Of a stretch of DNA of 64,000 nt, positions 12,642 through 63,900 are shown piece after piece. Each line of letters opens with the position of its first letter. Position 1 is the stretch's first letter. Origin of the DNA: Rhizophagus irregularis (lineage: Eukaryota); assembly GCF_026210795.1 (NCBI RefSeq), contig NC_089434.1, positions 434,001-498,000 on the forward strand, written 5' to 3'. The notes below the pieces were generated by a model. The model did no database searches. It saw only the letters and a program-made list of their open reading frames with translations, and was not told the DNA's origin. The position numbers and the translations under genes are program-made.

Positions 12642-13983
12642 ATATAATACTAGTAAGTGTTTTCGCAAATAAATCAAACAAATACTAGGGAACTTTATTT
12701 TTAATTGTTAAATATTTGTTGCTCATGAAAATTTATTGAGATAAAAGACGTTCTAAAATAGACAATGATATATGGATAACAGAAATTCTTTTTACAGTAT
12801 TGTGTTTTATATATTATTGAAAATATGTATAAAGTTTACATTACGTCAACCCTTTAAGTATTTTTTGTCATATACAGTATATGTACAAGGTTGCAAAATA
12901 ATTTAATTTTAAGGCAAAATTGTAATTTTTGGCCAAAAATTAAATGCAAAAATTATTGATGAAGAATAAAAAAAAAAAAATTATTTTGTATTACAGTATA
13001 TGTTGTGTCTGCTGTGATATTTGCTTTAAAGTAACTATCCTTGGCATAAGAATCCTAGATATATTTGATGCTAATCCTGGCCGAATTTTAATTCTGACTA
13101 GGATTGAGTTTTAACCGGTTAAGACTTTTTGGACCGGTTCCAACCTCTACTTTTGTTGTATTTTTTTGATTCGAGTAAATTTTGAATTGATGAATTGAAC
13201 TTTTATATAACCTACTTGTTTCAAATCACTTGTTTATCAAAAAAAAAAAAACTATACCTTTACGAAGTTGGTTGATCATCTACTGTATATAACTAAAAAA
13301 AATTTCCATATAAATAATTTGAATTGTGCAACATGATAACCCGTAAACCCGTGCCATAATATCGGGTCTGAAATTCTGTGATTTGGTCAGAATTATGCAA
13401 GTTCGGCCAACTTTACTATTCACAAATCCTGGCCAAGCTTAGCCAGCATTATGATGATTGCAAATCCTAAATCAGGCGAAAATTATCATCATTTTTATAA
13501 CCCTATTCTGCGTCCCTGTATAATATGAAAACCCGTGACATACTTGCGCCTGATCTATTCCTTATTTATTATTACATGAAAATTGTTACGTAATAATTTC
13601 TTTTCATTCAAACTTATTTTTTTTATTAAACCATATTACATCTTAAAAAAAAAATAATTATAATTCTACAGAAATTCTTCTCTTAGTTATGAACTTTTTT
13701 AGTAGAAATAATCAATTGAATGATTTCTTATAATCTTTCATGTTCATTATTCGCCACGTTATTTATTTAAAATACATCAATCATGTTTATATTGATTTTT
13801 TAAGTAAGACTACAAATTAATAGTCTATTGAATATATAATCAAGGTGTTATCTATTCATTAGTATGACAATCAAATTTGTTAAACTGAAAAAAAAAAGTA
13901 CGATAATATTTTCTTTTTTTGGTTATGAGGCGTAAAATACTACGCCTCAAGATCGCAAAATTTATGTGGGCACAACATGAAGT

Positions 13984-16299
13984 TTGATCAACAATTTGCA
14001 TTTCACTAATTTATCTCGGAGTACTCTTCGAAAGGGGTTAATTTGTGCAACAATTAATAGAACAATAACATTAACAGATACCAATATTTACAATGATATA
14101 CACAAACGATTTGAATTTCAAAAACAAACAACCCTTGATGATAAAATTCTTACAAATGATGAAAAAACTTATGCAATAAGATGGTTAACTAAAATTTATG
14201 ATCGAAATAAAATTATTCTTAATTCAGGAACAAAAGGAATTTGTGAAAATTGTGACCAAGAATGTTTAGCCACATTATATTGTGAGTATTGTGTCCGAAA
14301 TTATTTAAAAGAAAATTTTTTAAATTGGACATCTAAAAATGATGATATTGATGATATAATACAGAAATGTCAAATGGAATCACTTATGCCAAATATGGTA
14401 GTTGAATGGATCCCATATAGTAATTTAGAAAATATTAAATATTTAACAAAAGGTGGATTCTCAAAAATTTATACAGCAGATTGGATTAATGGAAGATATG
14501 ATGAATGGGATTTTGGCAAAAAACAATTAGAAAGAGATGAAACTTCTAAAATAATACTTAAAAGATTAGAAAATGTCGAAAGTGCAAATAAAAGTTGGTT
14601 TGAAGAGGTTTGTATAATTATATTCTAAATTTATTGTATAAAATTATGCAGTCTTTATATTAATATGAACTAATATTTTTACAAATTATTGCCTTTTAGG
14701 CTAAATCACATTTAACTATAAGTAACAAATGGGCAGATGTTGTTCGATGTTATGGTTTAACACAAGATCCATCAAATGGAAATTATATGCTTGTAATGGC
14801 AAGAATGGATATAGATTTAAGAAAATATTTACAACAAAATCATAATAAACTTACATGGAAAAAGAGAATTAATATTACTTATGAAATAATTACTGCACTT
14901 AGTTATATTCATGATGAGGAAGCAATTCATAGAGATTTACATTCTGGAAATATATTATATTCACAATTAGATGATTATTGGTGTATCAGTGATCTTGGAT
15001 TTTGTGGACCTGCTGATAAATCTTCAACAAGTATATATGGGAATCTTCCTTACATAGCACCCGAAGTTATTGTTGGAAGAGAATATACTTTTGCATCTGA
15101 TATTTATAGTATTGCAATTCTTATGTGGGAAATTTCATCTGGACAACCACCATTTATAAATTATGAACATGAAAATGATATTTTAATGAATATTATTAAC
15201 GGTATAAGACCAAAAATTGTGCCAGGAACTCCATTGGAATATAAAAATTTAATGAAAGAATGTTGGGATGCTGATCCATTAAAAAGACCTGATGCTGATA
15301 CACTTGCGGTAAGAATAAGAAGAATTAATTTAGATTATCAAAATATGTCAGATGAATTATTCAAACCAGAAATAAATAATTCAGAAATGAATATAGTAGA
15401 AGAAAATTATACGAGTAGCAGATTATTTACAAGTAAAATTCACAACTTTGGAAATCTACCTGAACCAAGAAATGCAATAGAAGGTATAAGTGTATAATAT
15501 TTTATTAATGAATGTATTTATTTTAAAATACATTATTAATATTATCTTTTTTTGAATTTATATTATAATAGAAGAACAAGAAGGTATTAACCGTATAAAT
15601 AATAATTTCTACCATTTTTTTGGTTACTATAATGATTTTAGTTCTTAAAATACTTTATTTTACTACTAATAGGGTTTCATAGTAAATTGTATGATTTTAA
15701 CATTCCTAACAATAGTAAGTAACATTATTACGGCGTTGAATTATTACATAGTGATATTTAATAATTGATATTTATTTTAGTTGATGATTTTAATAAATCA
15801 AATAAGCGAAATAGCAAATCATCAAAAGTAATTACTATGATTAGAGGTAATGTATTTTAATTATTGTCAAATCGAGATTAATTTTTATATTAATTCTATA
15901 TCTTAATTTTAGGTGATAGTGAAAAATTACCCGAAGAATTTATAAAGTTACAAATAAATTCAAATGGTAAGTTAAATTACTAACAAATAAAATCATCATT
16001 TTATCAAATTTATTTATTAAATGCGACTTTTATTTAAAATTTAGATGATGAAAAGGAAATAACTCAACGTGTCGACGGTAGGTGAAAATTTTACGTAATA
16101 ACAAACAATTTTTATACTATTTTAATTATGTTTATTTTCTTATAGATGATGACGAAGTATATAATAATCCAAATCTTCATTCTAAAGAACAAGATGAACT
16201 GGAAATTCCTGATGGTAAGTTCTTAAATAAATTAAATTTCTTCTTAAAGCAAATAATTAATTTATAATTTGTTATTTTTTATCTTTAGATGGATTTTGA
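13984..16299 (+). CDS. TKL-family kinase paralog lacking the conserved start ATG (possible young pseudogene)
   Basis: Same exon layout and motifs as 797-2894 (HRDLHSGN, DLG, YIAPE). CGG occupies the position of the ATG seen in paralogs, and the ORF track opens only on TTG at 13984. Last exon reads GAT GGA TTT TGA. Confidence 0.75.
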
Positions 16300-21357: not shown

Positions 21358-22303
21358 CATATCGGCATATCCAAGTCCCAAAGCCGAAAGAATCGATACC
21401 TACAAAAAGAAAAGAGAAAATTAAAAAAAAATAAAAAAAATAAAAATAAAAAACGTGTTTTATTCAAAACTTACTGATTCTTTGGGTTTTCCGTTCTTCG
21501 GAAGCCCACCCGAACCTATAAAAAAAAATACAAGAACGGTTAGTTAACCGTTCTTAATAATAAAAAAATAAAAAAAGTTAAGATTCGTACCATACCTTAC
21601 GAATCTTTGGGTTTTCCGTTCTTGGGAAGTCCACCCGAACCTATAAAAGAAAAAAGAAAGAACGGTTAGTAAACCGTTCATAATAATAAACAAAGAAAGA
21701 AAAAAAATAAAGATTCTTACGAATCTTTGGGTTTTTCCGTTCTTGGGAAGCCCACCCGAACCTATAAAAGAAAAGAAAGGAACGGTTAGTAAACCGTTCC
21801 AAAATATTAAAAAAAAAACAAAAACCAAAATTCGTACTCGTACTTACGAATCTTGGTTCTCCCGTTTGTCCGAAGTCCACCCGAACCTATAAAAGAAAGG
21901 AACGGTTATTAGTAACCGTTCATAATATTAAAAAAAAAATAAAAAAAACAAAACCAAGATTCGTATACTTACGAATCTTGGTTCTTTTCCGTTCTTCGGA
22001 ACCGAAAGTTCGCCCGAAACCTAAAAAATAGAAGTGAACGGTTATTGTAATCGGTTCATAATATTTTTTTTTAAAAAAAACAAAAAAAACAAAACCAAGA
22101 TTCGTATATACTTACGAATCTTGGTTCTTTTCCGTTCTTCGGAACCAGGAAGCCGCCCGAAACCTAAAAAAAGAAAAGAACGGTTATTAGTAACCGTTCA
22201 TTAATAATATTAAAAAAAAAGAAAAAAAATTAAACCAAGATTCGTACTTATCTTACGAATCTTGGTTTTCCGTTCTTCGGAACTTGGAAGCCCACCCGCT
22301 GAC
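21358..22303 (-). repeat. Tandem array of 8 antisense mini-exons (39-48 nt) with hairpin-embedded splice signals
   Basis: Exons at 22257-22303, 22116-22163, 21973-22020, 21848-21886, 21721-21761, 21601-21640, 21475-21515 and 21358-21399, each flanked by TAG| and |GTAAG on the - strand. Confidence 0.7.
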
Positions 22304-35893: not shown

Positions 35894-36283
35894 ATAGCCT
35901 TAAATTATTATTTTGATAATTTATCATAATTGGAAAAGTTTTAAAATAAAAAAAAGATTTATTTAAATTACAAACTAAGAAACTTGTAAAATATTTACTA
36001 CCTAGTCCTAGTGTTTAAATAATTCTAAGTATAATAAAAAAAGTGAATATAAATACATAAGCTAAAAAAAAAGGAATTATTTAAATTACAAACTAAGAAA
36101 CTTGTAAAACATTTTACTACTCTAGCCTTAGTGTTTAAATAAATCTAAAAAGAATAAAATAAAGAACAATTTTTGTTGAATGCATGATACCAAATATCAC
36201 TTTTAAATAGACTATAAATCATTAATTTTCATCTGTTTTAATATAATAAAATAAAATTAATTTTGTATAAATAATTTGCAAGA

Positions 36284-39200
36284 TTAAATTTTATATGCAC
36301 TATATTGCATACCTAATGACTTCAAATCTTTAATTATATAATCATTCAAATCTTCACTTAGCTGTTCATTTACTTCTACACTAGCTTGTAAATCTTCGCT
36401 TTCAAGAATTTCATTCAAGTTTTCACTAGTATTTTCAACTGCTTTAATATCTAATAATCAAATAAATAAATTATTTTCACATAAATAATTTGCAAGATTA
36501 AATTTCATATGCACTATATTGCATACCTAATAACTTCAAATCATTAATTATATAATTATCCAAATTTTCACTTTCAAGAATTTCATTCAATTTTTTACTA
36601 GTGAAATCAAGTAAGCAACTTGTATGATATGCTTTAGGATGAGATTTAGTAGCTAGATCGCTATGCACAATTGGTGCATTTATAAATTCCATAATGTTGC
36701 TTTTTAATTCTTCATTAATTTTATCATCAGGACGGATAATCCAATTCTTAATAATACCTTTCACTTCTGAGGTAGATGGCCTTTTCAATGGATCTTCATT
36801 CCAACATTTTTTCATTAAATCTACATAGCATTGTGGAGTATTTTCAATAATTTTAGGGCGTTCACCTTTACAAATACTATAACTAAGTCGAAAATCATGT
36901 GCTTTATTATTAAATGGTGGTACCCCAGATGTAAATTCCCACATAATCATAGAAAAACTATATATATCACTAGCTGGAGTATAAGATTTGCCTCTTAAAA
37001 CTTCAGGAGCCATAAATGGCATAACACCATAAATATCATACTTTTTCAAAAACGATTTTACAGGTTGACATAATCCTAAATCACAAATATAAATTTTATC
37101 CTTATTCTTATCATTATGATTTAAAATATTACCATCATGAAAATCACAATGAATAAGATTATTTCCATGTATCCTACTAAGTCCAGAAATAATTTCGTAC
37201 AACATATATAATTTTTGATTCCATTTATTTTCGACTATTCTTGTTAGATTTTCTCTTAAATTACCTTTATTTGCATAGTACATTACTACCATATATTTTG
37301 AAGTATTTGTATCTTCTGTGAATCCATAAACATTTATAATATCATTTGAAGTTAAAACACTTATATGATATTCCCACTATAAATATAATAATTATTATTA
37401 AATATAAATAAATTTTAATTTAAATTAAAAATAGAAAATAATATACTATCATACTTCTTTTAAAAATTCATTTAAATTTTCATCTAAATTCTTAAGACAT
37501 TTAAGAATTACTTCTTCATCTCCATTATTCTTTAACCAAGTAGCTTTGTATATAGTACCAAATCCTCCTTTATTAAGATATTCAACATTTTTAAATTTGT
37601 TATAAGGAATCCATATTAATTCTTTTTCAAGAATAAAATCATCTATAATTGCATTTCCACTTTTCCCAAATCTATAAATTTAAAGTATTAAAATTATATT
37701 ATGGATTGTATTATAATTTACACTAAAATAAATTATTGCTTACTCTAAAATTTAAATAGGAATTTAATTTAATATAAGTCTTAAGTTTTTGGATAAATAC
37801 ATATACTAATAATCTATAATTTACAACTTACCAACTAAAGTAATAGATATTTTTTAAATGAAAGAATTAAATTAACAAATAGATATTATATAAAATATAT
37901 AATAATAGAGATACTTACAAGCTAGATCATAAATATTTTTAAATAAAGAAATTAGATAGTTTAAATTATATGTAAATATTATAACAATAAGTAACAATAG
38001 AATTAAATAAATAACTTACCATCTATAAAATAATTTTTTATATAAAGAAATTAGATAGTTTAAATTATATGTAAATATTATAACAACAAGTAATAATAGA
38101 ATTAAATAACTTACAATCTTTAAAATAATTTTTTATATAAAGAAATTAAATAGTTTAAATTATATGTAAATATTATAACAATAAGTAATAATAGAATTAA
38201 ATAAATAACTTACTCACTATATTATTTAATAATTTTTTAAATAAAGAAAAATTAGATAGTTTAAATTATATGTAAATATTATAATAATAAGTAATAATAG
38301 AATTAAATAAATAAATTATGACTTACCAACTACAAAATAAAGAAATTAGATAGCATAAATTATATGTAAATATTATAACAATAAGTAATAATAGAATTAA
38401 ATAAATAACTTACACCCTATATTATTTAATAATTTTTTAAATAAAGAAATTATATAGTTTAAATTATATGTAAATATTGCAACAATAAGTAATGATAGAA
38501 TTAAATAAATAACTTACGATCTATTAAATAAATAAAGAAATTAGATAGTTTAAATTATATGTAAATATTATAACAATAAGTAATAATAATAGAATTAAAT
38601 AAATAACTTACGATCTATTAAATAAATAAAGAAATTAGATAGTTTAAATTATATGTAAATATTATAATATAAGTAATAATAATAGAATTAAATAAATAAC
38701 TTACCAACTATTAAATAAAAATTAGATAGTTTAAATTATATGTAAATATTATAACAACAGGTAATAATAGAATTAAATAAATAACTTACTCCCTATATTA
38801 TTTAATAATTTTTTAAATAAAGAAATTTGTTAGTTTAAATTATATAACAATAAGTAATAATAGAATAAGTAATAATAGAATTAAATAAATAACTTACAAT
38901 CTATTAAATAAATAAAAAAATTAGATAATTTAAATTATATGTAAATATTATAACAATAAGTAATAATAGAATTAAATAAATACTAACTTACCATCTATTA
39001 AATAAATAAAGAAATTAGATAATTTAAATTATATGTAAATATTATAATAATAAGTAATAATAGAATTAAATAAATAACTTACTCCCTACATTATTTAATA
39101 ATTTTTTAAATAAAGAAATTAGATAGTTTAAATTATATGTAAATATTATAACAATAAGTAATAATAGAATTAAATAAATAACTTACGATCTATTAAATAA

Positions 39201-40867
39201 ATAAAGAAATTAGATAGTTTAAATTATATGTAAATATTATAACAATAAGTAATAATAGAATTAAATAAATAACTTACTCACTATATTATTTAATAATTTT
39301 TTAAATAAAGAAAAAATTAGATAGTTTAAATTATATGTAAATATTATAATAATAAGTAATAATAGAATTAAATAAATAAATTATGACTTACCAACTACAA
39401 AATAAAGAAATTAGATAGCATAAATTATATGTAAATATTATAACAATAAGTAATAATAGAATTAAATAAATAACTTACACCCTATATTATTTAATAATTT
39501 TTTAAATAAAGAAATTAGATAGTTTAAATTATATGTAAATATCATAAAAATAAGTAATAATAGAATTAAATAAATAACTTACGATCTATTAAATAAATAA
39601 AGAAATTAGATAGTTTAAATTATATGTAAATATTATAACAATAAGTAATAATAATAGAATTAAATAAATAACTTACGATCTATTAAATAAATAAAGAAAT
39701 TAGATAGTTTAAATTATATGTAAATATTATAATATAAGTAATAATAGAATTAAATAAATAACTTACCAACTATTAAATAAATAAAGAAATTAGATAGTTT
39801 AAATTATATGTAAATATTATAACAATAAGTAATAATAGAATTAAATAAATAACTTACTCCCTATATTATTTGATAATTTTTTAAATAAAGAAATTAGATA
39901 GTTTAAATTATATAAATAATATAAATATAGATATCATATAACTTACACCCTGTAGTATTATTAATTATTAATTAGTTAGATATAAAGATAATATAAAAGT
40001 ATTTACTGTAAATTATATATATTACTTACAATCTAGTTGTTTAAATTAAGAATATAATTAGTTGAATTATGTAAAATATTAAACAAATAAATATAATATT
40101 TATATTGTAACTTACCATCTGTAATACAATTAATTATTAAATAGTTATTTAAACAAAGAATTTAGTTATTTGAATGTTGTATAAAAATAAATAAAGTAAA
40201 GGACTAAAGATTTAAATAACTAATAACTTACTAACTACAGATTATTAATTATTGAATAAATTATTTAGTTATATGGAATACAATAAAAATAATAATGAGT
40301 AATTCATTATATTAACTTACGAGCTAAATATTTAATCATATAATTTTTATATAAAATAGTTAGTCTAAATTATATTTGTAGTATTTGAATTGTTATAAAT
40401 AAAAACTTAATATTTCAGCTACCTTTAGATTCCTTGGTGTCACTTCCTTCAAATTCCTCAATACTACTACTTTCAAATTCTTCAGTGCCACTTCCCTCAA
40501 ATTCTCCAATGTCACTTTCTTCAAACTCTTCTATATTACTGGAAACTAGTTTTGTTATATTGCAAATTTGATTTTAATTATATTTGATTATTTACAATGA
40601 AATTTTTTTAATAAATAAAAAAACTTAATATTTCAACTTTGTTTTGTACATAATATTTACCTTCAGGTTCTTTTGTATCACCCAAAACTAGTTTATTATA
40701 TTGCAAGTTTGATTTAAAAATTTTGAATAATTCTAATTTATATTATTATTCATGTTATAAACTTTACCTTTACCAATACATTGGTCCATTACTATATCAA
40801 AATTCTCAATTGGAAAAGATAAATATCTTTTTTCTTTTTTTTTTATTATTAAATGCCTTTTAAACAT
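36284..40867 (-). CDS. TKL-type kinase (second subfamily) with an N-terminal micro-exon array
   Basis: Exons: 40768-40867 (or from the ATG at 40789), 40661-40687, 40423-40545, 27 x 3 nt, 1 nt at 37744, 37455-37671, 36527-37376 and 36313-36450 (3' end uncertain). The joined frame is open: MDQCIGKVLGDTKEPEVSSNIEEF...KESK-ALNDWWIDHRFVNRNDWIDHRFVNYAFE-FGKSGN...KGGFGTIYK...HCDFHDGN...DLG...FMAPE. Confidence 0.8.
37744..40323 (-). repeat. Tandem intron/3-nt-exon array (83-116-bp period)
   Basis: The + strand shows CTTAC-NNN-CT(A/G/T) 27 times, which is AG|NNN|GTAAG on the - strand, with a CTAAT branch-site-like motif in most introns. Confidence 0.9.
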
Positions 40868-46631: not shown

Positions 46632-47391
46632 CTGCTAACCTGATTTTGAAGCTTCGGGCAAAGCCACAGATTTACGGGCGAAACTTGAAATTTTTAAAAT
46701 ATATTATTTAGGTATTCAAGAATCAATGGTTAAAATAAACCAGCAGAATTTTAGATAAACCAAAAGTTATCATTAAATGAATATTATTAAAATATATATT
46801 AGGAAAAAATTTTGGCAAAATTTTATGAACTGTTTAAAGAATTTTTTTTGTTTTATTTATTTAAACAACAAATTTTGATCATTAAAAAATTATATTGTTT
46901 ATTTTTTTATAAATAGTCTTTAAAATTTTGTGAAGAAATACTCATAAAAACACATTTTATTAGAATTTAAAAAGTTATTATTACTAGTAAAAGTTACCCA
47001 ATAATGATGCGATCTTGATAAAATTTAATATGCAGTAAATCTAAATGAATATTAAGCTGTCTGTAAAATTTGAGTACATATTATTATGTAGAATTTTCAA
47101 CCAAAGCCAATCAATTTAATTATAGCGAAGAGATAAAAATTGAATAAATGATCGACAAATGATCGTCAAAATTGTGATAAAATAGGGATGTCCGCTATGC
47201 TAATGCAGGTACTACAAGCACCATATTTGGAGAAAACATTTTGTGTAAGTTGCACTACATTATAAGACTGTAAATCATTGCTAATAATTTTGGTCACAAA
47301 ACTTTATTTCTCTTTTTTCTCATCGTAATTTTTAAAACTTTCAAATTTATAAAAATTCTTTTCCTTTCAAAGCTCTTTTTTAAATAATCCA

Positions 47392-49899
47392 ATGTCTATA
47401 ATTCGAAAAGAACTTGCTCATGCAGCAATATCTAGGTCACTTGCATTAATAGATTATAATGTTCACAAGAATATTCACAAAATATATGAATTTCAACAAC
47501 AAACACTTCTTGCTGATAATTCTTTTACAAAAGATGAAAAAAATTATGCAATAAATTGGATAACTAGAGACTATGATCGAAATAAAATTAATAACAATTC
47601 AGGAACAAGAAGAATTTGTGAAAATTGTAATCAAAAATGTTTAGCTACATTATATTGTGAATTTTGTGTTCAAAATTATTTAAAAACAAATTTTTCAAAT
47701 TGGACATCTGGAAATGTTAACATTGATAATTTAATCCAGAAATGTCAATCAGAAACACTCATGCCAAGTATGATAGTTGAATGGATTCCATATAATAATT
47801 TACAGAATGTCAGGTATTTAACAAAAGGTGGTTTTTCTGAAATTTATACAGCAGATTGGGTTGATGGAAAATATGAAGAATGGGATTCTAAAAAACAGCA
47901 ATTAAAAAGAGTTGGAAGACATAATGTAATACTTAAAAAATTAGAAAATGTTGAAAGTGCAAATCAAAGTTGGTTTGAAGAGGTTTGTAACCTACTGTAA
48001 ATCTAAGAAAATTGATTAACCAATTCAGCTTTATATTGATAATAGATTTTTACATTTTTTTAGGCTAAATCACATTTAACTATAAGTAATAAAAGGTCAG
48101 ATATTGTTCAATGTTTTGGTTTAACACAAAACATATCAAATGGAAATTATATGCTTGTAATGTATAAAATGGATATAAGTTTAAAAGAATTTTTACAACA
48201 GAATCACAATAAACTTACATGGAGACAAAAATTAAATATATCTTTTGAAATAGTTAGGGCACTTTATTTTATTCATAAAGAGAATGCAATTCATAGAGAT
48301 TTGCATTCAGGAAATATATTGTATTCACAAATCAATAGTAAGTGGTATATTGGTGATCTTGGATTTTGTGGACCTGCTGATAAATCATCAAAAAGCGTAT
48401 ATGGAATTCTTCCTTACATAGCGCCAGAAGTTATTAATGGAAGAGAATATACTTTTAAATCTGATATTTATAGTATTGCAATGCTTATGTGGGAAATTTC
48501 ATCTGGACAACCACCATTTATTAATCATGGACATGATTGTAATCTTGCAATAAATGTTATTAATGGTATTAGACCAAAAATTGTGTCAGGAACTCCTACA
48601 GAATATAAAAATTTAATGGAACAATGTTGGGACGCTGATCCATCAAAAAGACCAGATACTAATACACTTATGATAAAAATAAGAGAGATGAATTTTTATT
48701 ATCAAAGTATGACGGATGAATCAGAAATACACAATAATTTAGAATTAGATGAAACAAATAGTAATACAAATAGCAGATTATTTACAAGTAAAATTCATCA
48801 ATTTGAGAATCTACCCGAACCAAGAAATGCGACAGAAGGTATTATATTTAATATATGTTGCTTTTATTATTTAAATACATAAATAATAACAAAAAATTCT
48901 CATTTTTTATATTAAAAATGAATAGAGGAGCTAGATGGTAATGTAAATTTGTCAATCTAATAATTAAAATCTTTTAATTTCTCAGATTATTTATATTCTT
49001 ATTCATTTCGACTTTTTTTACTAAAATATTTTATTTTAAATAGTATTCCATAGTAAACCATATGATTATAGTATTCCTACTAATAGTAAGTATTTTTTTT
49101 CAAATTGTAGGATTGTTATATATAGTATATATTTTTAATTATTAATTTTACCTTTTCTTTAGTTGATAACTCAAGCAATCAGAATAATAGTAGAACATCA
49201 AAAATAAATAGCTTTTTTAAAGGTTGGTGAATTTATCCATATACAGTCTTTACAGAAACTTCAAGATCGTAGCGATGGCTTAATGCGCAGTAACTGCGTT
49301 ATAAATACATAGTGACCACATTTATGTAATCGTAAAGAAATTACATATATGCAGTTACTGCGCATTAAGCCATCGCTACGATCTTTGAAGTTTCTGTAAA
49401 GGTATTTAATTGATTTATCTTTTTTTTTTATAAAAAAATAATTGGATAAATAAATAATGAATCATATTTTAAATTTTAGCCAATAGTAAAAAATTATCCA
49501 AAATGTTTAAAAAGCTACAAGTAAAAGATGGTATGTAAATAAGTTAATATTATTTATTAATGCAAATATTCATTAAATGTAATTTATTTCAATTTAATAT
49601 AAACAAGAAACAGTGCAACAAACAAAAGGACCAAATGTTAATTTTAATGGTAAGACTGACAAATATACACATTTTAATGACCATTTTTGTATTTTTTTCT
49701 AATTATTCTCATTTTGTTACTAAAGATGATGAAGATGAAGTATACAATAACCCAAATTTTCATTCTAAAGAACAAGATGAATTTGAAATTCCTAATGGTA
49801 AAAAATTCACTATTTTAAAATGTAAAAATTATTTACTTTAATTTACTAATTTTTATTATTGAAAATATTTTTTTTTTTTTGATATTAGATACAAAATGA
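47392..49899 (+). CDS. TKL-family protein kinase paralog, apparently intact
   Basis: ATG start, CxxC..CxxC, KGGFSEIY, HRDLHSGN, DLG and YIAPE. Same intron positions as 797-2894. The short C-terminal exons end GAT ACA AAA TGA. Confidence 0.88.
49244..49402. mobile_element. Foldback MITE in a kinase intron
   Basis: About 50-bp inverted arms CTTTACAGAAACTTCAAGATCGTAGCGATGGCTTAATGCGCAGTAACTGC, with TA at the outer flanks. Confidence 0.7.
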
Positions 49900-54915: not shown

Positions 54916-57241
54916 TTGTCTGCTATTCGAAGAGAAGCAATTCGTGCAGCACTTAATAAATCACTTGCAATAGTAGATTATAATGTATGTGATGACATGC
55001 ACAAACAACATATATTAACAAACACTACTTGCTGATAAATCTCTTACAGAAGATGAAAAAACTGAAGCAATAAAAGAATTGTATGAAATTTATGATCGAG
55101 ATAAAATTATTTCTAATTCAGGAATAAGTAGAATTTGTGAAAATTGTAATAAAGAATGTTTAGCTACATTATATTGTGAATTTTGTATTAGAGATTATTT
55201 AAAAGCAAATTTTTCAAATTGGACATCTGGAAATAATGACATTGATAATTTAATACAAAAATGTCAGTTAGAAACGATTGAACCAGATGGAGTAATTGAA
55301 TGGATTCCATATAATGATTTACAAAATATCAAATATCTAACAAAAGGTAGCTTTTCTGAAATTTATACAGCGGTTTGGATTGATGGAGGATATGAAGAAT
55401 GGAATTCTAAGAAACAACAATTAGTAAGATTTGGAATACAAAGAGTTATACTCAAAAGATTAGAAAATGTTGAAAATGCAAATCAAAGATGGTTTGAAGA
55501 GGTGCGTAATCTAAAAAAATACTTGTATTTAAATTTTTCAAGTATTACTTATAAAATATTATTATTTTATAGGCTAAATCACATTTTAATTTAAGCAAAT
55601 TATCACAAATTGTCCAATGTTATGGTTTAACACAAGACCCATTAAATGGAAATTACATGCTTGTAATAGATACAGCAAAACTATAATCAACTTACTTGGG
55701 AAGAAAGAATTCTGATTATCCAAAATATAATTAAAGGACTATTTAGTATTCATTCACGAAATGTAATTCTAGAGATTTGCATTCTGGAAATATATTGTAT
55801 TCAAAACGAAATCAACGATTTTATATTAGTGATCTTGGATTTTGTGGACCTGCTGATAAACCATTAGAAAGTATATATGGAAATCTTCCTTATATAGCAC
55901 CTGAGGTTATTACTGGAAAGAATACTACAAAAAAATCAGATATTTATAGTATTGCAATGCTTATGTGGGAATTTCATCTGGACAACCTCCTTTTGGTGAT
56001 TATGGAAATGATTATTATCTTGCAAAGAATATTTTCAATGGTATGAGACCAAGAATAGTATCGGGAACTCCTCTAGAATATGAAAGATTAATAAAACAAT
56101 GTTGGGATGCTGATCCATCAAAAAGACCACATACTTTAACAGTTTTTGATAAAATAAGTGAAATTATTTTAAATAATCTATATGAGACAACTCAATCAAG
56201 AACAAATTTTAGTTCAGAAACAAATAAAGCAAATATAAATTATACAAGCAGCAGATTATTTACGAGTAAAATTTATCAATTTGGCGGGTTTCCCGAGCCG
56301 AGAAATGCAACTGAAGGTAAATGCTTTAATGATATTTTTCAGTTATTAATTATTTGTATTTGTATGTTATTGTACGGGCGTGCTTAATAATGGTATGGAA
56401 GCGCCACATCAGATCATTATTAAGCGCCCGTACAATAATAATTATTATGATTTAAATTAATAAAATATATATTTTGTTTAAATAATAATAGAAGAACAAG
56501 AAGGTAAGAGTGAATAATATTTTTATTTAAAAAAATTATTTTACTGCAAATGATTTATATTAATATTGGCATCTTAATTTTTAATTTTGTAGCATTTTAC
56601 AGTAAATCATATGATAATTTTTATATTCCTGATGATGGTAAATATTTACTAATTTATTTTGTCGCAAATATAAATTAGCTGAATAATTAATTGATTTTAT
56701 TTTTTATTTAGTTGATGATTTTAATAAATCAAGTAATCAGAAAAATAATGGTAGTGTCTTAAAAATTGCTTTATTTGTATAATTATTTATAGCTAAATAA
56801 AATTACAACTTTAGATGACAGTGAAGGTTTATCCAAAGATTTTAATAAGTTACAAATAAATTCAAAAGATGGTAAGTAGTAATATAGTGATCAATTTTAC
56901 TAATTTAACCATGTATTTTATTATTAGTTATATTATTTTATATTTAGAAGTTGTTCAAAATGTTTATAAAATGGACGTGACGCAACAGCAAGTAAATAAA
57001 CATTATACCGATGGTATGTGATAAATTATTATCATAAATTTTTATATTGTTTTAAATTCTGATTTATTTTATTTTATTTTTTTATAACAGATGACGATGT
57101 AACAATCCAAATCTTCGTTCAGAAGAACAAGATGGAATTGAAATTCCTGATGGTAAGTTTACTTTTTTATAATTTAAATTTTATTTGATTTTATTTACTA
57201 AATTTATATATATATACTATATATTTTTTGTAGAAATTTAA
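54916..57241 (+). pseudogene. TKL kinase pseudogene
   Basis: Start codon ATG changed to TTG, frameshifts or deletions near 55015, 55670, 55770 and 55970. The exon structure otherwise matches the paralogs. Confidence 0.85.
56367..56438. repeat. Short intronic inverted repeat (MITE remnant?)
   Basis: TTATTGTACGGGCG(TG)CTTAATAATG / CATTATTAAGCGCCCGTACAATAA. Confidence 0.6.
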
Positions 57242-57973: not shown

Positions 57974-60900
57974 TTAATTATTTAATATTATATTTAACAT
58001 TTGAGATTCTTCTTCTCTTTCTTCATCATCTATTGCATTTTCACAAAATTCTAACCTTTTTTCTAAAATTAAACCTCTATTTAAATTAATAAATTTTTCA
58101 CAATGATTTTTTAATTTTAAAGCTTTACAATTATCTGCCCATTCTGACATTTCAATTACATTATTAATATTAACACAACCATCTTTCATAATTGTAATTT
58201 CTACTATATCTTTAAGTGGTTTACATCCACTTATATCTGTAATTTTTAATAAATTGACAAGAAAATCTAAATAATAAGAATCATAATTTTCTTCTTCAGT
58301 TCGTTTTCTCAAAGTAGAACTTGCTTCTTCAAAAGATTCTCCATATAACCATCGAAGGAATACTCGGAAAGAATTTGATTGGATATAATCTAATCTAACT
58401 TCAACCTGTCTATTATCTTCTGATTCGGCTGTATGACCACAAAACATTTTCTCAAAGTATTCTGATGCAGCTATTTGAAAAAAAAAATGGTAAATACAGT
58501 GTTAATAAACAAATTATTTAATTATAAAACTTACGAACGATATTTAACTTACCAGAAAGTACATAACGACTAGCACCAATTCTTGTTCCCTCTTCACCAA
58601 CAATAAAAATAACATCATGATGTTTCGTATCAGGATGTCTTATAAGTCTTTTTAATAAATTATTATGTAATAAATCTTTTTGATCATGATAATCGTGAAT
58701 AAGATCATATTCATTAATATTTATTTCTTCCAACTCATGAGCTCCAGCAAGTTTCAATAAATCTTTATAAGGCATTATAAATTCATCAACTTTTTTTAAT
58801 CCTTTACTAATATCTTCTTGTACTCCAAATACAAGATTATCTCCTGCTACCCAATTATCATTATCAAATAAATCTTCTCCATTTAAGAATAATCTATTTT
58901 TTGTAATAAATGATATTATTATATTCTTATGAATCATTTCTTGTGAAAATTCATTCATTATTTCATAAATTTTTTCAATTATCTTCTTAATAACTTTATA
59001 ATTTTCTGAAGATTTCCAAGTTAAAGATCCTAATTTAATTTTTTCAACAACTAAAAACCAATGTTTAATAACATCAATTAAAGTTGGTTTTCCAATATTA
59101 GGAAAATATCTATAAAGTATATTATTTGGTTCAACACTTTTTTCAAATAAAGGTCTTTGAGACCAACATACTTCTTTATATTGTTGAGAACAAAGTACTG
59201 AAAAACATTCATAACCTAAAGTTACTTTAGCTTCTTCATTAAATAATCGATTTTGAAAATATTTTTCTGATGGAACGAATTTTATATTCATAATTTGATT
59301 CAATTGATCAATTGTTAAACCTAAACTAGTAATATGTCCATAGAAATAATCTGTAACATATTTTGCTCGATGTTTAACTATATTTTCTGGATAACTTTCG
59401 GATCTTCTAAATTGTGATTCAATTTCTTTTGCACATTCAATAAATGTATTAGCATTCACATGACGTTTAAGTCCGATTCTTTCTAAAGCTCCCATCAATC
59501 TTGGATTTTGTAATTCTGGAGCTAAAAATTTATCACTACCTTCAAAAACATTGAAAAATAAAGGAACGGTATTATCATATAAAGTATTTGCCTTCACCAA
59601 AGATTCATGTGTTACATTTGGAATTACTTGACATTCTTTAAGAAATTGTTCAATTTCTCCATTTTCTAAAGATAAAACCTTTTTTAAGAAATTTATATAT
59701 TCTTCAGATGGTTTTGTATATATATGTTGTGGTAAGAAATGATCTCTAACATATTCTAATTCATCAATTGAATTTGCGCCTAAGTTGAAGAGTGCATTAT
59801 AATCATTTTCGTTATCACATTTATAAAAATGTACATTTTCTTGTAAGGGAAAGAATGGAAGATTATGTGGAAGAAGGATTCCAGATTTCGCATCAATAAA
59901 TTTGTCATCACTTGAACATATTGGCCATATAGGTAATGAACGTAATGAACGAAGAATATTAGCAAATCTATCTTGTCTTCGACCATGTCCTATTTATAAA
60001 GTAGATATTAATTATCGTGAAATTAAATTTGATAATGTCAATAATCGAAAAATAATTAATAATGATTATACTTACTTATTAAATCATCAATATTATCTTT
60101 AATATAATTTCTAAATTTTTCATAATCTTTTGGTAAAAGATTACGTTCTTTAAATAATTGATCCATGGACATATTTGATGAAACACACATTCTTTCTAAG
60201 GCATTAATAATATTAACCGAATTAAATGGTAATACGCATTGTCTAATATTATGATTAGCTGAAGTTGGAAATTCCTTATTTGTGAATCGTAATTTAAGTT
60301 TCACTAATACAGGATAAAAATTTCTTTCATAATCACGTATACTAATAAGTGGATTTGTAATATCAAGTTGAACGAGTTTTTCATAAGGTTGAATCATTGG
60401 TAAAAGAGGAAATTTTGAAAGTCTAATAAAATTGATATTATCATCAACTTCAAGTTTTGACCAAATTTCTTCTAACCATTTACTATTTGGTATTGAAGTA
60501 CTATTAGGTTCATAATCTAATTCTTCAATATCATGAAATTCTAATGATAAAAGATCTAAAATTGCAGCAGAATCAAATCGTCTGATATTTGTTTGTACGG
60601 AAAATTTCTTACTTCTAAAAATTTCTAATAATGCCCCCGGTAGATCAATATGAACAAATCTTGAAGGTCCAAATTTTGGGAATAAATCTATATACTTTTG
60701 TTTCCCAATATAATAGACATTTCCAAATTTTCCAATCGAACCATCATTCAATGGAACTAATGGTAATCTATTAAGGATTTCATAAGATTCATCTATACTT
60801 TTAAGAATAAATTCAAGTAATAAGAATAATAAAGAACGAATAATTTCTTTTTTGGCAGTTTTATCATTTTGATAGAACATATGTATATATTCCTCATTTT

Positions 60901-63900
60901 TTCGTATTACGTCACAAATAGTTCTTCCACCAATCGTCGTATAAGGAAAACTACTTTGTTTAGAAATCTCCTTAAGTTGGATCAGTTTTTCCTCATCAAA
61001 TTTTAAAGATGAAACTCCCCAATATGCCAAAAGATCTGCAATCATAGGATCACTTTCTTCATGTACATTACTTTCTTTTAAGGATACAAATTTACCGCCA
61101 TTAGCTTCAGTCCAGAAAAATTTTGAATCATTTGTACCTAATTTTTTGATAACATGTAAACCATATTTTTTATATAATCCTATAATTGAATTTTTTGGAA
61201 TCGGCCAAAGATTATTTAAAGTATGTGGTTTGAAATTTATTTTTGTATCATCAGTACGAGAAGCCTTCATTTTTTCGAATCGAATGTTTTCAAGTTTAAC
61301 GATCTCTTCAAGTAATATAATATGTAATTCAGGTAAAAGATCATACATAATATATTGATTCCATTTTGCATCTTCATCATTAGCCGTCAAAAAATCAGTA
61401 GCAGATTGTATAATATTATTTCTCGCGCTAGTTAAGGAAAAATTTCCATTTAAATGAACGCTTAAATTGGTGATCATAGATAGAGATAAATAATTATAAA
61501 TTCCGCCAACGAATTCATCAGGAGGATTTGGAAACTATATGAATCATAAAAATTTTTCGATATATTTAATATTGGTGAAAAAGATATATTAATATTGGTG
61601 GAACATATATAATATTGATGAAATTATAAAATCGAAAAAAAATAAACATTACCGATTCATCTTTTAAATTATCCAACGTTTTATTAGATCGAGCGAGTAA
61701 AGCTGCGACTCCGCCTCTTGGCTTTTCAAAAAAAAAAAAAATTTAAGGTTTGTTTTTTAGTAAAAAGTTCTTAAATTCATTCAAGATCACTAATAAACTA
61801 TAATTAATTACCTTGAGTCGTTTATTCTTCATAAATTTTTTAAAATCATGTCTAGTTTTATCATGTTCTCCCGTACATATTAACCATATTTCCGAAGATT
61901 TCTTTCCCTTTATATCCATTTCAAAATCTAATTGATATACTTGTGATTTATGAACCACGCTTTTACGAATATTACGATAATTATCATTCATATTTATTTT
62001 AACTTCCCAAATCAATCGAGAATCACTATTTCCATTTGTTATATGACGTAAACTACACGATTCTACATTCCTTAAAAAGAGCATCTCGTTATTACTCTGA
62101 AAATTATCAAATATTTCCTTAATTTTAAGGACCTTTTTAGAGATTTCACTTTGTTCCGCTAATTTAGAAGTTCTTAATGGAAGTCTAAACAACGTTCCCT
62201 TAAATTCTTTTGTAAAATCACAACCTAACGCCTCATAAGGATAACATTGATCTGGAAAATGCTTCTTAAATTCCAGGTCAATAAAATTGAATCTATTACC
62301 TCTAAATCTTCTAGGAGGGTATCCTTGTGCTGGAAGATATTTTGCATTAGGGTCTAAAAATGCGATATATTTTCCACTTACAAAGCTAGGTAAATCTGTT
62401 AAATGAAAAGCACAATTAAATCCTATTCCAAATCTACCAATTTTTGTATCATCATCAGATTTTCCTCCAACTCCAAGTTTAATCAAAGATTGAAAATCTT
62501 TTGAAGTAAATTCAGCATCATTATAAATCCATATTGCGGGACCTTGCCAATCTTCCATCTCTTCTGATAAAAAAGATTTTTGTAGTTTATTATGACAAAA
62601 TGGTTTTCTTTCGTCTACTATTATGGAAAAGTGTGTGGCTTTAGCATCATCTGCGTTCTATACATAGAAGAGAAATCATTACGTTAATTCTTTAGATGTA
62701 ATTATTTTATATTAACTTCGTTCGTGTACTTACTTGAAGAAATTCTTTAAATATGGAGCTCGTCGGATAATCCTAAAAAAAAAAAAATTTAATAAATTTG
62801 TGAATTAATGTTAATGCATATATGATGATTAATGAAATTATTAAAGTTACCTCGATAATATGTTTAATTCTAGTAGTTAATAATTCATTTTGTTCATATG
62901 CATCCCAATTAATATCTCCACCGGTATTACTAATGCCAGTAATTTTTCCGGCTAAAGTTTGTAATTCCAATTCTTTAGCGATATCCAAAGTTACGAAACG
63001 ATGAGCAAGTTTATAATCTTTTTTCTCATCATCATCAAGTCTATCCTCCATATCATCAAATTGAATTTCATGTAAATTAACAAGAGTATCTTCAGTACTT
63101 GGTATTAATAATCCATCTAATTTTTCTCTTTCAATTCCTTCTCTTTTATTTTCCTTTTGTATTTTTGCGATATGTTCAAGAATTCTAATAATATTTGTGA
63201 TTTCAATCGCGGATAAGATTTTATCTTTATCCACTTTAACCATATTCTGAATAACTAAAATCAAATCCTTGATTCCAATCTCATCACGAACTCCCATATA
63301 TCTAAATAAAGATTTCATTCTATTATATTCCGTTGGAAGTTCAACAATTATAGAATTATTAACATGAAATTTATTTGGAAGATTAAAAACTACTTTTTCA
63401 GCTGGATAAAATATTTCTCCACATAAAATCCATGGATGAGTTTTTAAAGCTTTTTTTATAATCTCAAATTCTACATTAGATTTATAATCCCTTGAACGTG
63501 AATCAAAAATTTCATTAATATATTTATAAATAGCCATACAAATATCTTCCAAATTTTTTGGTGATTGTTTACTAAGTACTAATTTATAACAAAATATTAA
63601 TTGTTCTAAAACTTTTTCAACTTTAGGATAATTATCCCATCTTAAAAATTTTAAAAATTTCTTATTAACTTTTGTTTTAATTATAGGAGAAATTAAACCA
63701 ATTAAATCTTTATCTTTTTGACAATAACAATTATCAGATCTTGAAAATTTTATTTTTTCATTCATATCAATAGTTGGAATCCATTCTTTTTCTAAAATCG
63801 TTTTTGATAATAAATTATTATTAATATTACGAATAAATCTATTATTTTGTGAATCATTAATATTAAATGTATCCCATTTATCATCAATATATTTAAAAAG

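Follow-up and report, generated by a model that had tools for sequence, protein, structure and literature searches.

A probable one-nucleotide exon joins an array of three-base exons to the kinase exons in a Rhizophagus kinase family

Single-nucleotide exons are described in Arabidopsis APC11 and in plant VPS55 (PMC4674806, PMC8831610), and splicing of APC11 has been proposed to proceed by intron definition, with the flanking introns removed in steps (PMC4674806). Among fungi, the account of Fusarium CYP621A gives a one-nucleotide exon, supported by RNA reads, whose base stands in the middle of a codon spread over three exons (PMC12940212). Long reads of Coprinopsis cinerea yielded 13 exons of a single base, each in a different gene, and 27 exons of three bases, spread over 26 genes, counts which indicate that fungi splice such exons routinely (PMC12230235). 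The Tuber nank genes (Iotti et al. 2012), as cited in PMC4986451 and PMC10197012, carry arrays of codon-sized exons. Here, we analyzed a 64,000-nucleotide stretch of Rhizophagus irregularis DNA (the window; NC_089434.1, positions 434,001 to 498,000), for which an earlier note, made from the sequence alone, had proposed a one-nucleotide exon in a kinase gene. That note regarded such exons as very rare, whereas VPS55, Fusarium CYP621A, and the 13 Coprinopsis genes make them less so. The pieces are therefore known, but for the combination and the lineage we found no report: neither micro-exon arrays nor 1-nt exons in Glomeromycotina, neither of the two in mycorrhizal kinases, and no gene combining a 1-nt exon with a codon-exon array, in a search of openly available main texts. 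The available text of a long-read annotation preprint (10.1101/2022.10.19.511543) contains no word starting with "micro".

The host gene of the 1-nt exon is an R. irregularis kinase on the - strand. A protein search with its kinase exon (37376-36498, -) returned 1371 relatives at E <= 0.001, and all species-named matches among the best 120 of these came from R. irregularis, R. diaphanus, and R. clarus. The public protein P0001 was 99% identical to the kinase exon of the window and matched kinase families only (PF07714, E 2.7e-42, and also PF00069). These domains and the large number of close relatives among three Rhizophagus species place the gene in an expanded Ser/Thr/Tyr kinase family; such kinases are among the high-copy gene families of R. 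irregularis (PMC8647823). When the 1-nt A was included, the gene model comprised 35 exons (Table 1) with an open frame of 489 aa, which differed from P0001 by a single substitution and by 37 additional residues. The window copy was intact, with this frame, perfect GTAAGT donors at 27/27 triplets, and the usual kinase motifs. The end of the first kinase exon at 37455 agreed with an RNA joint. Near the stop, an RNA joint ran from 36313 to 36244, yet the window copy has no AG at 36244 (segment 36244-36233, -), and the next AG, 12 nt further on, yields the C-terminus of P0001. The acceptor at 36244 has probably been lost from the window copy.

Table 1. Coordinates of the kinase gene model and of the introns and candidate sites around the one-base exon
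Feature	Position	Strand	Basis
Exon 1 (ATG, 22 nt, ends in phase 1)	40768..40789	-	P0001 N-terminus match
Exon 2 (27 nt, phase 1-1)	40661..40687	-	P0001 match
Exon 3 (123 nt, acidic Glu/Ser/Gly repeats, phase 1-1)	40423..40545	-	P0001 match, one difference
27 three-base exons (all AG-NNN-GTAAGT), introns 80-113 nt	37832..40323	-	motif; 3' triplets in RNA consensus
Last triplet exon TTG, donor of the G of the Glu codon	37832..37834	-	RNA consensus, all four runs
Upstream 87-nt intron (GTAAGT..TAG)	37745..37831	-	removal inferred from loose-end consensus
1-nt exon A (middle base of GAA, Glu)	37744..37744	-	motif, RNA, paralogs, frame
Rival 1-nt candidate T (AG-T-GTAAAT), not supported	37722..37722	-	RNA consensus A; motif absent in L002
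Downstream 72-nt intron (GTAAGC..TAG)	37672..37743	-	joint 37671-37744, skip of 72, 25 reads, four runs
First kinase exon (starts in phase 2; inner in-frame acceptor AG 37644-37643)	37455..37671	-	RNA, frame
Main kinase exon (PF07714/PF00069)	36527..37376	-	domains; intron 37454-37377 skipped in 105 reads
C-terminal repeat exon	36313..36450	-	P0001 match; RNA joint 36450-36527
Last coding exon with stop	36221..36232	-	C-terminus same as P0001

At 37744, the - strand reads TTTTAG-A-GTAAGC between introns of 87 and 72 nt, as the earlier note had stated, and both introns run from GT to AG. The phase mismatch on which the proposal rested was also reproduced: the three leading exons and the 27 triplets all end in phase 1, and the exon at 37671 begins in phase 2. 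The A would bridge the two as the middle base of a Glu codon, with G from the last triplet and A from the kinase exon. This GAA from three exons restored the frame as claimed, whereas joining the triplets to 37671 without the A led to a stop within ten codons. The site lies 90 nt from the last triplet, inside the array spacing range of 83-116 nt and thus one array period below it, as had been described. The motif by itself is not above chance, because TAGNGTAAG was observed once in the window against 1.02 expected; its landing in the required 160-nt gap is above chance, with a probability of about 0.0013. YAG-N-GTAAG fell in the gap in 0.2% of 5000 local shuffles and bare AG-N-GT in 24%.

RNA was drawn from four raw-read runs picked by species label (three PolyA RNA-seq and one presumed RNA, from at most three samples and two studies), and reads were aligned to 36200-37935 at 92% likeness. 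At 37671, 123, 172, 204, and 30 reads (529 in total) left the kinase exon as loose ends running into sequence outside the stretch. Their consensus on the + strand started with TCAAAAGCAT in three runs and with TCAAAAG in the fourth. The model with the 1-nt A predicts TCAAAAGCAT, in agreement with the consensus for 10 letters in three runs and for 7 in the remaining one. Four alternatives, namely a T as the exon, omission of the exon, a 5-nt exon starting at the same acceptor, and a retained intron, each departed from the consensus within the first two letters. The last three triplets agreed with the consensus in three runs and the last two in all four. Consensus agreement was 0.63-0.76, a figure for the whole 30 letters and not per letter. 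Moreover, 6, 7, 9, and 3 reads skipped exactly 37672-37743, with canonical and unambiguous ends; for scale, the ordinary intron between the two kinase exons was skipped in 105. These 25 joint reads ran on into the upstream intron for as much as 62 nt and still contained its 3' part. Among the 15 joints listed of 20, none corresponded to the 87-nt intron, and none of the displayed reads linked a triplet, the A, and the kinase exon.

At the family level, these results place the base in spliced RNA, with the two-A junction at the kinase exon that had been predicted for cDNA. Only 157/4942 aligned reads were at least 99% alike to the window, the letter of the window was carried by 2-5% of reads at four diagnostic sites, and at 37769, 21/22 reads had the letter of the paralog L001 (described below). 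Almost all aligned reads derive from paralogs or other alleles, and the RNA therefore speaks for these.

To compare the site with genomic relatives, we used a metagenome scan, in which 11 loci contained 2 true paralogs (L001 and L002) and 9 weak matches that were left out; a prokaryote genome scan gave only weak bacterial matches (12/12 loci). Protein identity to the window gene was 83% for L001 and 70% for L002. TTTAG-A-GTAAG formed an invariant block of 11 columns across the window, L001, and L002, and AG-A-GTAAG, whose conservation in paralogous kinases the earlier note had proposed as a check, was thus kept in 2/2 genomic paralogs retrieved. The distance from the site to the kinase exon was 72 nt in L001 and 90 nt in L002, and the kinase exon was in phase 2 in both. 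The block was kept although the flanking introns of L002 aligned at only 55/90 and 61/88. An AG-ATT-GTAAG triplet was found upstream of the 1-nt exon in L002; the L001 sequence ends short of the triplets. Also upstream of the 1-nt exon, L002 contains a degenerate, partly duplicated CAA unit (120-175), one copy of which has an AG and a weak donor and the other a GTAAGT without AG. This unit is possibly a triplet in decay.

It is highly probable that the A at 37744 is a true one-base exon common to a Rhizophagus kinase family. The exon is well supported for the family, and we infer it for the window copy. A different origin of the two-A reads has a small probability, namely expressed paralogs with a longer A-containing exon, or intron-less DNA, with the window copy silent or mis-spliced and its AG-A-GT a relic. 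Such an origin would fit the fact that most reads do not come from the window copy, and the 25 joint reads may represent a paralog without the 72-nt intron or stable intron retention. However, both genomic paralogs share the split layout, a few percent of reads bear the letters of the window copy, and that copy keeps its 489-aa frame, its 27/27 GTAAGT donors, and its usual kinase motifs.

Three stop-free routes restored the frame: the A at 37744 (Glu), a T at 37722 (Val), and the AG at 37644-37643, joined directly. The claim that a 1-nt exon is needed was therefore too strong from sequence alone, since two further routes exist, although the A itself found support in RNA and conservation. It is these two that decide for the A, because the frame argument does not single it out. 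The AG at 37724-37723, which the earlier note described as running straight into a stop, in fact belongs to AG-T-GTAAAT, itself a frame-restoring 1-nt candidate with flanking introns of 109 and 50 nt. The T site is kept in L001 but missing from L002, the RNA consensus of all four runs has A and not T, the 72-nt skip in the reads spans 37722, and the 50-nt downstream intron would be shorter than any of the 31 others as far as the second kinase exon (72-115 nt). A T exon is thus largely refuted at the family level, and we consider it very improbable as the 1-nt exon.

The window copy might also omit the 1-nt exon and join its upstream exons to AG 37644-37643, with the loss of nine residues. Use of a different acceptor that restores the frame had been named as evidence against the 1-nt exon, and an acceptor that restores it is present here; P0001 joins exon 3 directly to it, and P0010 and P0131 are models of the same kind. 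Nevertheless, read depth was 714 at 37652 versus 762 at 37622, so that about 94% continues upstream of the inner AG, which leaves this acceptor a minor role at best. Loose ends at 37642 did not occur among those listed, a listing that omitted 273, the residues that would be skipped are conserved in 85/250 relatives, and L002 has no AG at the corresponding position. Omission of the exon in this manner is accordingly improbable.

The public proteins of the family were then compared at the start of the kinase exon. The exon-start motif was found in the proteins of 85/250 relatives, 15 of which start at the motif. The residues before it were SK in 20, LE in 9, YR in 7, and FE in none. LE would correspond to the intron end plus the A read as exon, SK to a 5-nt exon from the same acceptor, and YR to read-through of the kinase acceptor; the SK and LE starts (29/85) would then be the expected gene-finder output from an AG-A-GTAAG site. 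The predicted string Phe-Glu-Phe-Gly-Lys-Ser-Gly-Asn occurred in 0/389 proteins from the protein searches, and hence there is no confirmation at the protein level. With the A included, the Phe from the last two triplets comes three positions ahead of the residue equivalent to W in the WTSGN motif, a place occupied by Phe in 63/97 WTSGN motifs of distant relatives and in 4/4 other window kinases. Six public models (P0015, P0016, P0026, P0184, P0196, and P0202) have Gly/Ile/Leu/Met-rich N-termini before SKFGK or SKSGK, which resemble micro-exon arrays joined in an incorrect phase.

The introns were all 72-115 nt, a size that suits intron definition. Ordinary intron definition is therefore the probable mode, with the two short introns removed one after the other: once the 72-nt intron is gone, the kinase exon would begin with the A, and the 87-nt intron would then be cut at its own AG. 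Since the flanking introns would leave stepwise, the spliceosome need not recognize a 1-nt exon. We infer this order from the 25 joint reads, which show the pattern expected of a downstream-first intermediate, although stable intron retention would look alike; the reverse intermediate, with the 87-nt intron out and the 72-nt intron in, was absent among the 15 of 20 joints listed. In a motif scan, neither of the flanking introns showed a branch motif of the CTRAY type. The extra A could also come from RNA editing or non-templated insertion, or 37744 could be a recursive-splicing ratchet in one 160-nt intron, and no displayed read shows the 87-nt intron removed alone. A ratchet point, however, is a zero-length AG-GT that leaves no base in the mRNA, whereas the site here is AG-A-GT with the A present in the RNA consensus. 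As the A is templated, conserved, and placed between a canonical acceptor and a used donor, either origin is extremely unlikely.

The triplet array was far above chance: AGNNNGTAAGT was counted 29 times in the window versus 1.17 expected, and 27 of the 29 lay inside the array. Its middle introns are near-identical, recent tandem copies, and the outer ones have diverged. We also considered the 72- or 87-nt intron as a recent copy of an array intron, but this origin found no support, as neither resembled the array introns above chance (best z about 2 versus 10-16 for array introns 7 and 27). In the triplet order, a duplicated block gives the peptide WIDHRFVN twice. All triplets start with AT, TT, GG, CT, or TG, and skipping among them therefore never makes a stop. 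By contrast, the 7/27 triplets that end in T would give TAA if joined directly to the A, which predicts that the array end is constant and its interior free. In RNA, the consensus was constant for 7-10 letters and mixed beyond, mixing that paralog differences alone can cause.

A broader suggestion, which we put forward tentatively and regard as rather doubtful, is that the whole Rhizophagus kinase family, probably dozens of genes per genome, uses a fixed 1-nt phase adaptor on a hypervariable codon-exon array, whose triplets undergo duplication, loss, and combinatorial skipping and so encode a variable sensor peptide. If so, no larger set of 1-nt exons would be known, the array would act as an immune-like diversifier in a fungus that has long been considered clonal, and the requirement for a non-T triplet plus A at the array end would explain the constant TTG-A in RNA. 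If triplets are skipped in combination, the array would be a candidate for generating diverse proteins for sensing, in a fungus that lives in symbiosis with most land plants. A one-base exon adjoining a three-base exon also puts models of exon recognition to a hard test, and with many natural paralogs, the order of splicing can be read from RNA. For annotation, the one-base exon means that a kinase subfamily of a model mycorrhizal fungus is mis-annotated at the N-terminus, as 0/85 proteins read Phe-Glu and P0001 is short by 37 residues.

Other features were observed in the window. The + strand carries four further kinase genes, which belong to another subfamily (788-2313, 13981-15497, 47353-48882, and 55019-56387); the last of them looks interrupted. 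In these genes, WTS[GK]N is preceded by a Cys-rich CxxC segment, where the array gene has triplets, and the two N-terminal exons scanned gave no Pfam match. A second tandem repeat at 21475-22303 (-) consists of seven blocks of the form TAG, 39-48 nt, GTAAG, spaced 125-143 nt apart. Each spacer has a hairpin and a T-rich end, and the units resemble exon-intron units; their coding is doubtful because some blocks have lengths not divisible by three. A long multi-exon gene occupies 57974-62657 (-), with text that we take to resemble sacsin-like ATPase and BTB domains.

Compared with the described systems, the probable exon at 37744 is of the APC11, VPS55, and CYP621A kind, being one base between canonical AG and GT and two introns of normal size. 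As in the accounts of APC11 and VPS55, it is conserved in homologs and was missed by annotation; those genes are described there as low-copy housekeeping genes (1-2 or few copies), whereas the kinase belongs to an expanded family and its 1-nt exon follows a 3-nt exon that ends a 27-exon array. CYP621A shares with it the fungal host, the phase 1 to phase 2 mismatch as the clue, and the middle base of a three-exon codon, but the corresponding text concerns orthologs of one P450 in Ascomycota and describes no micro-exon array, and the present gene is from Glomeromycotina. The Coprinopsis microexons, as counted in that report, are scattered at about one per gene, in contrast to 27 three-base exons and a one-base exon in a single gene. 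The citing texts on Tuber nank offer the closest parallel to the array, with several 3-nt exons, an expanded fungal gene family, and a peptide that could vary codon by codon; the 27 consecutive triplets found here in an expanded family are of this type. The NACHT and ankyrin domains of nank have no counterpart, since P0001 shows kinase families only. Tuber nank is described as an NLR-like receptor with reported alternative splicing, and the gene analyzed here is a kinase whose array is closed by a 1-nt phase adaptor.
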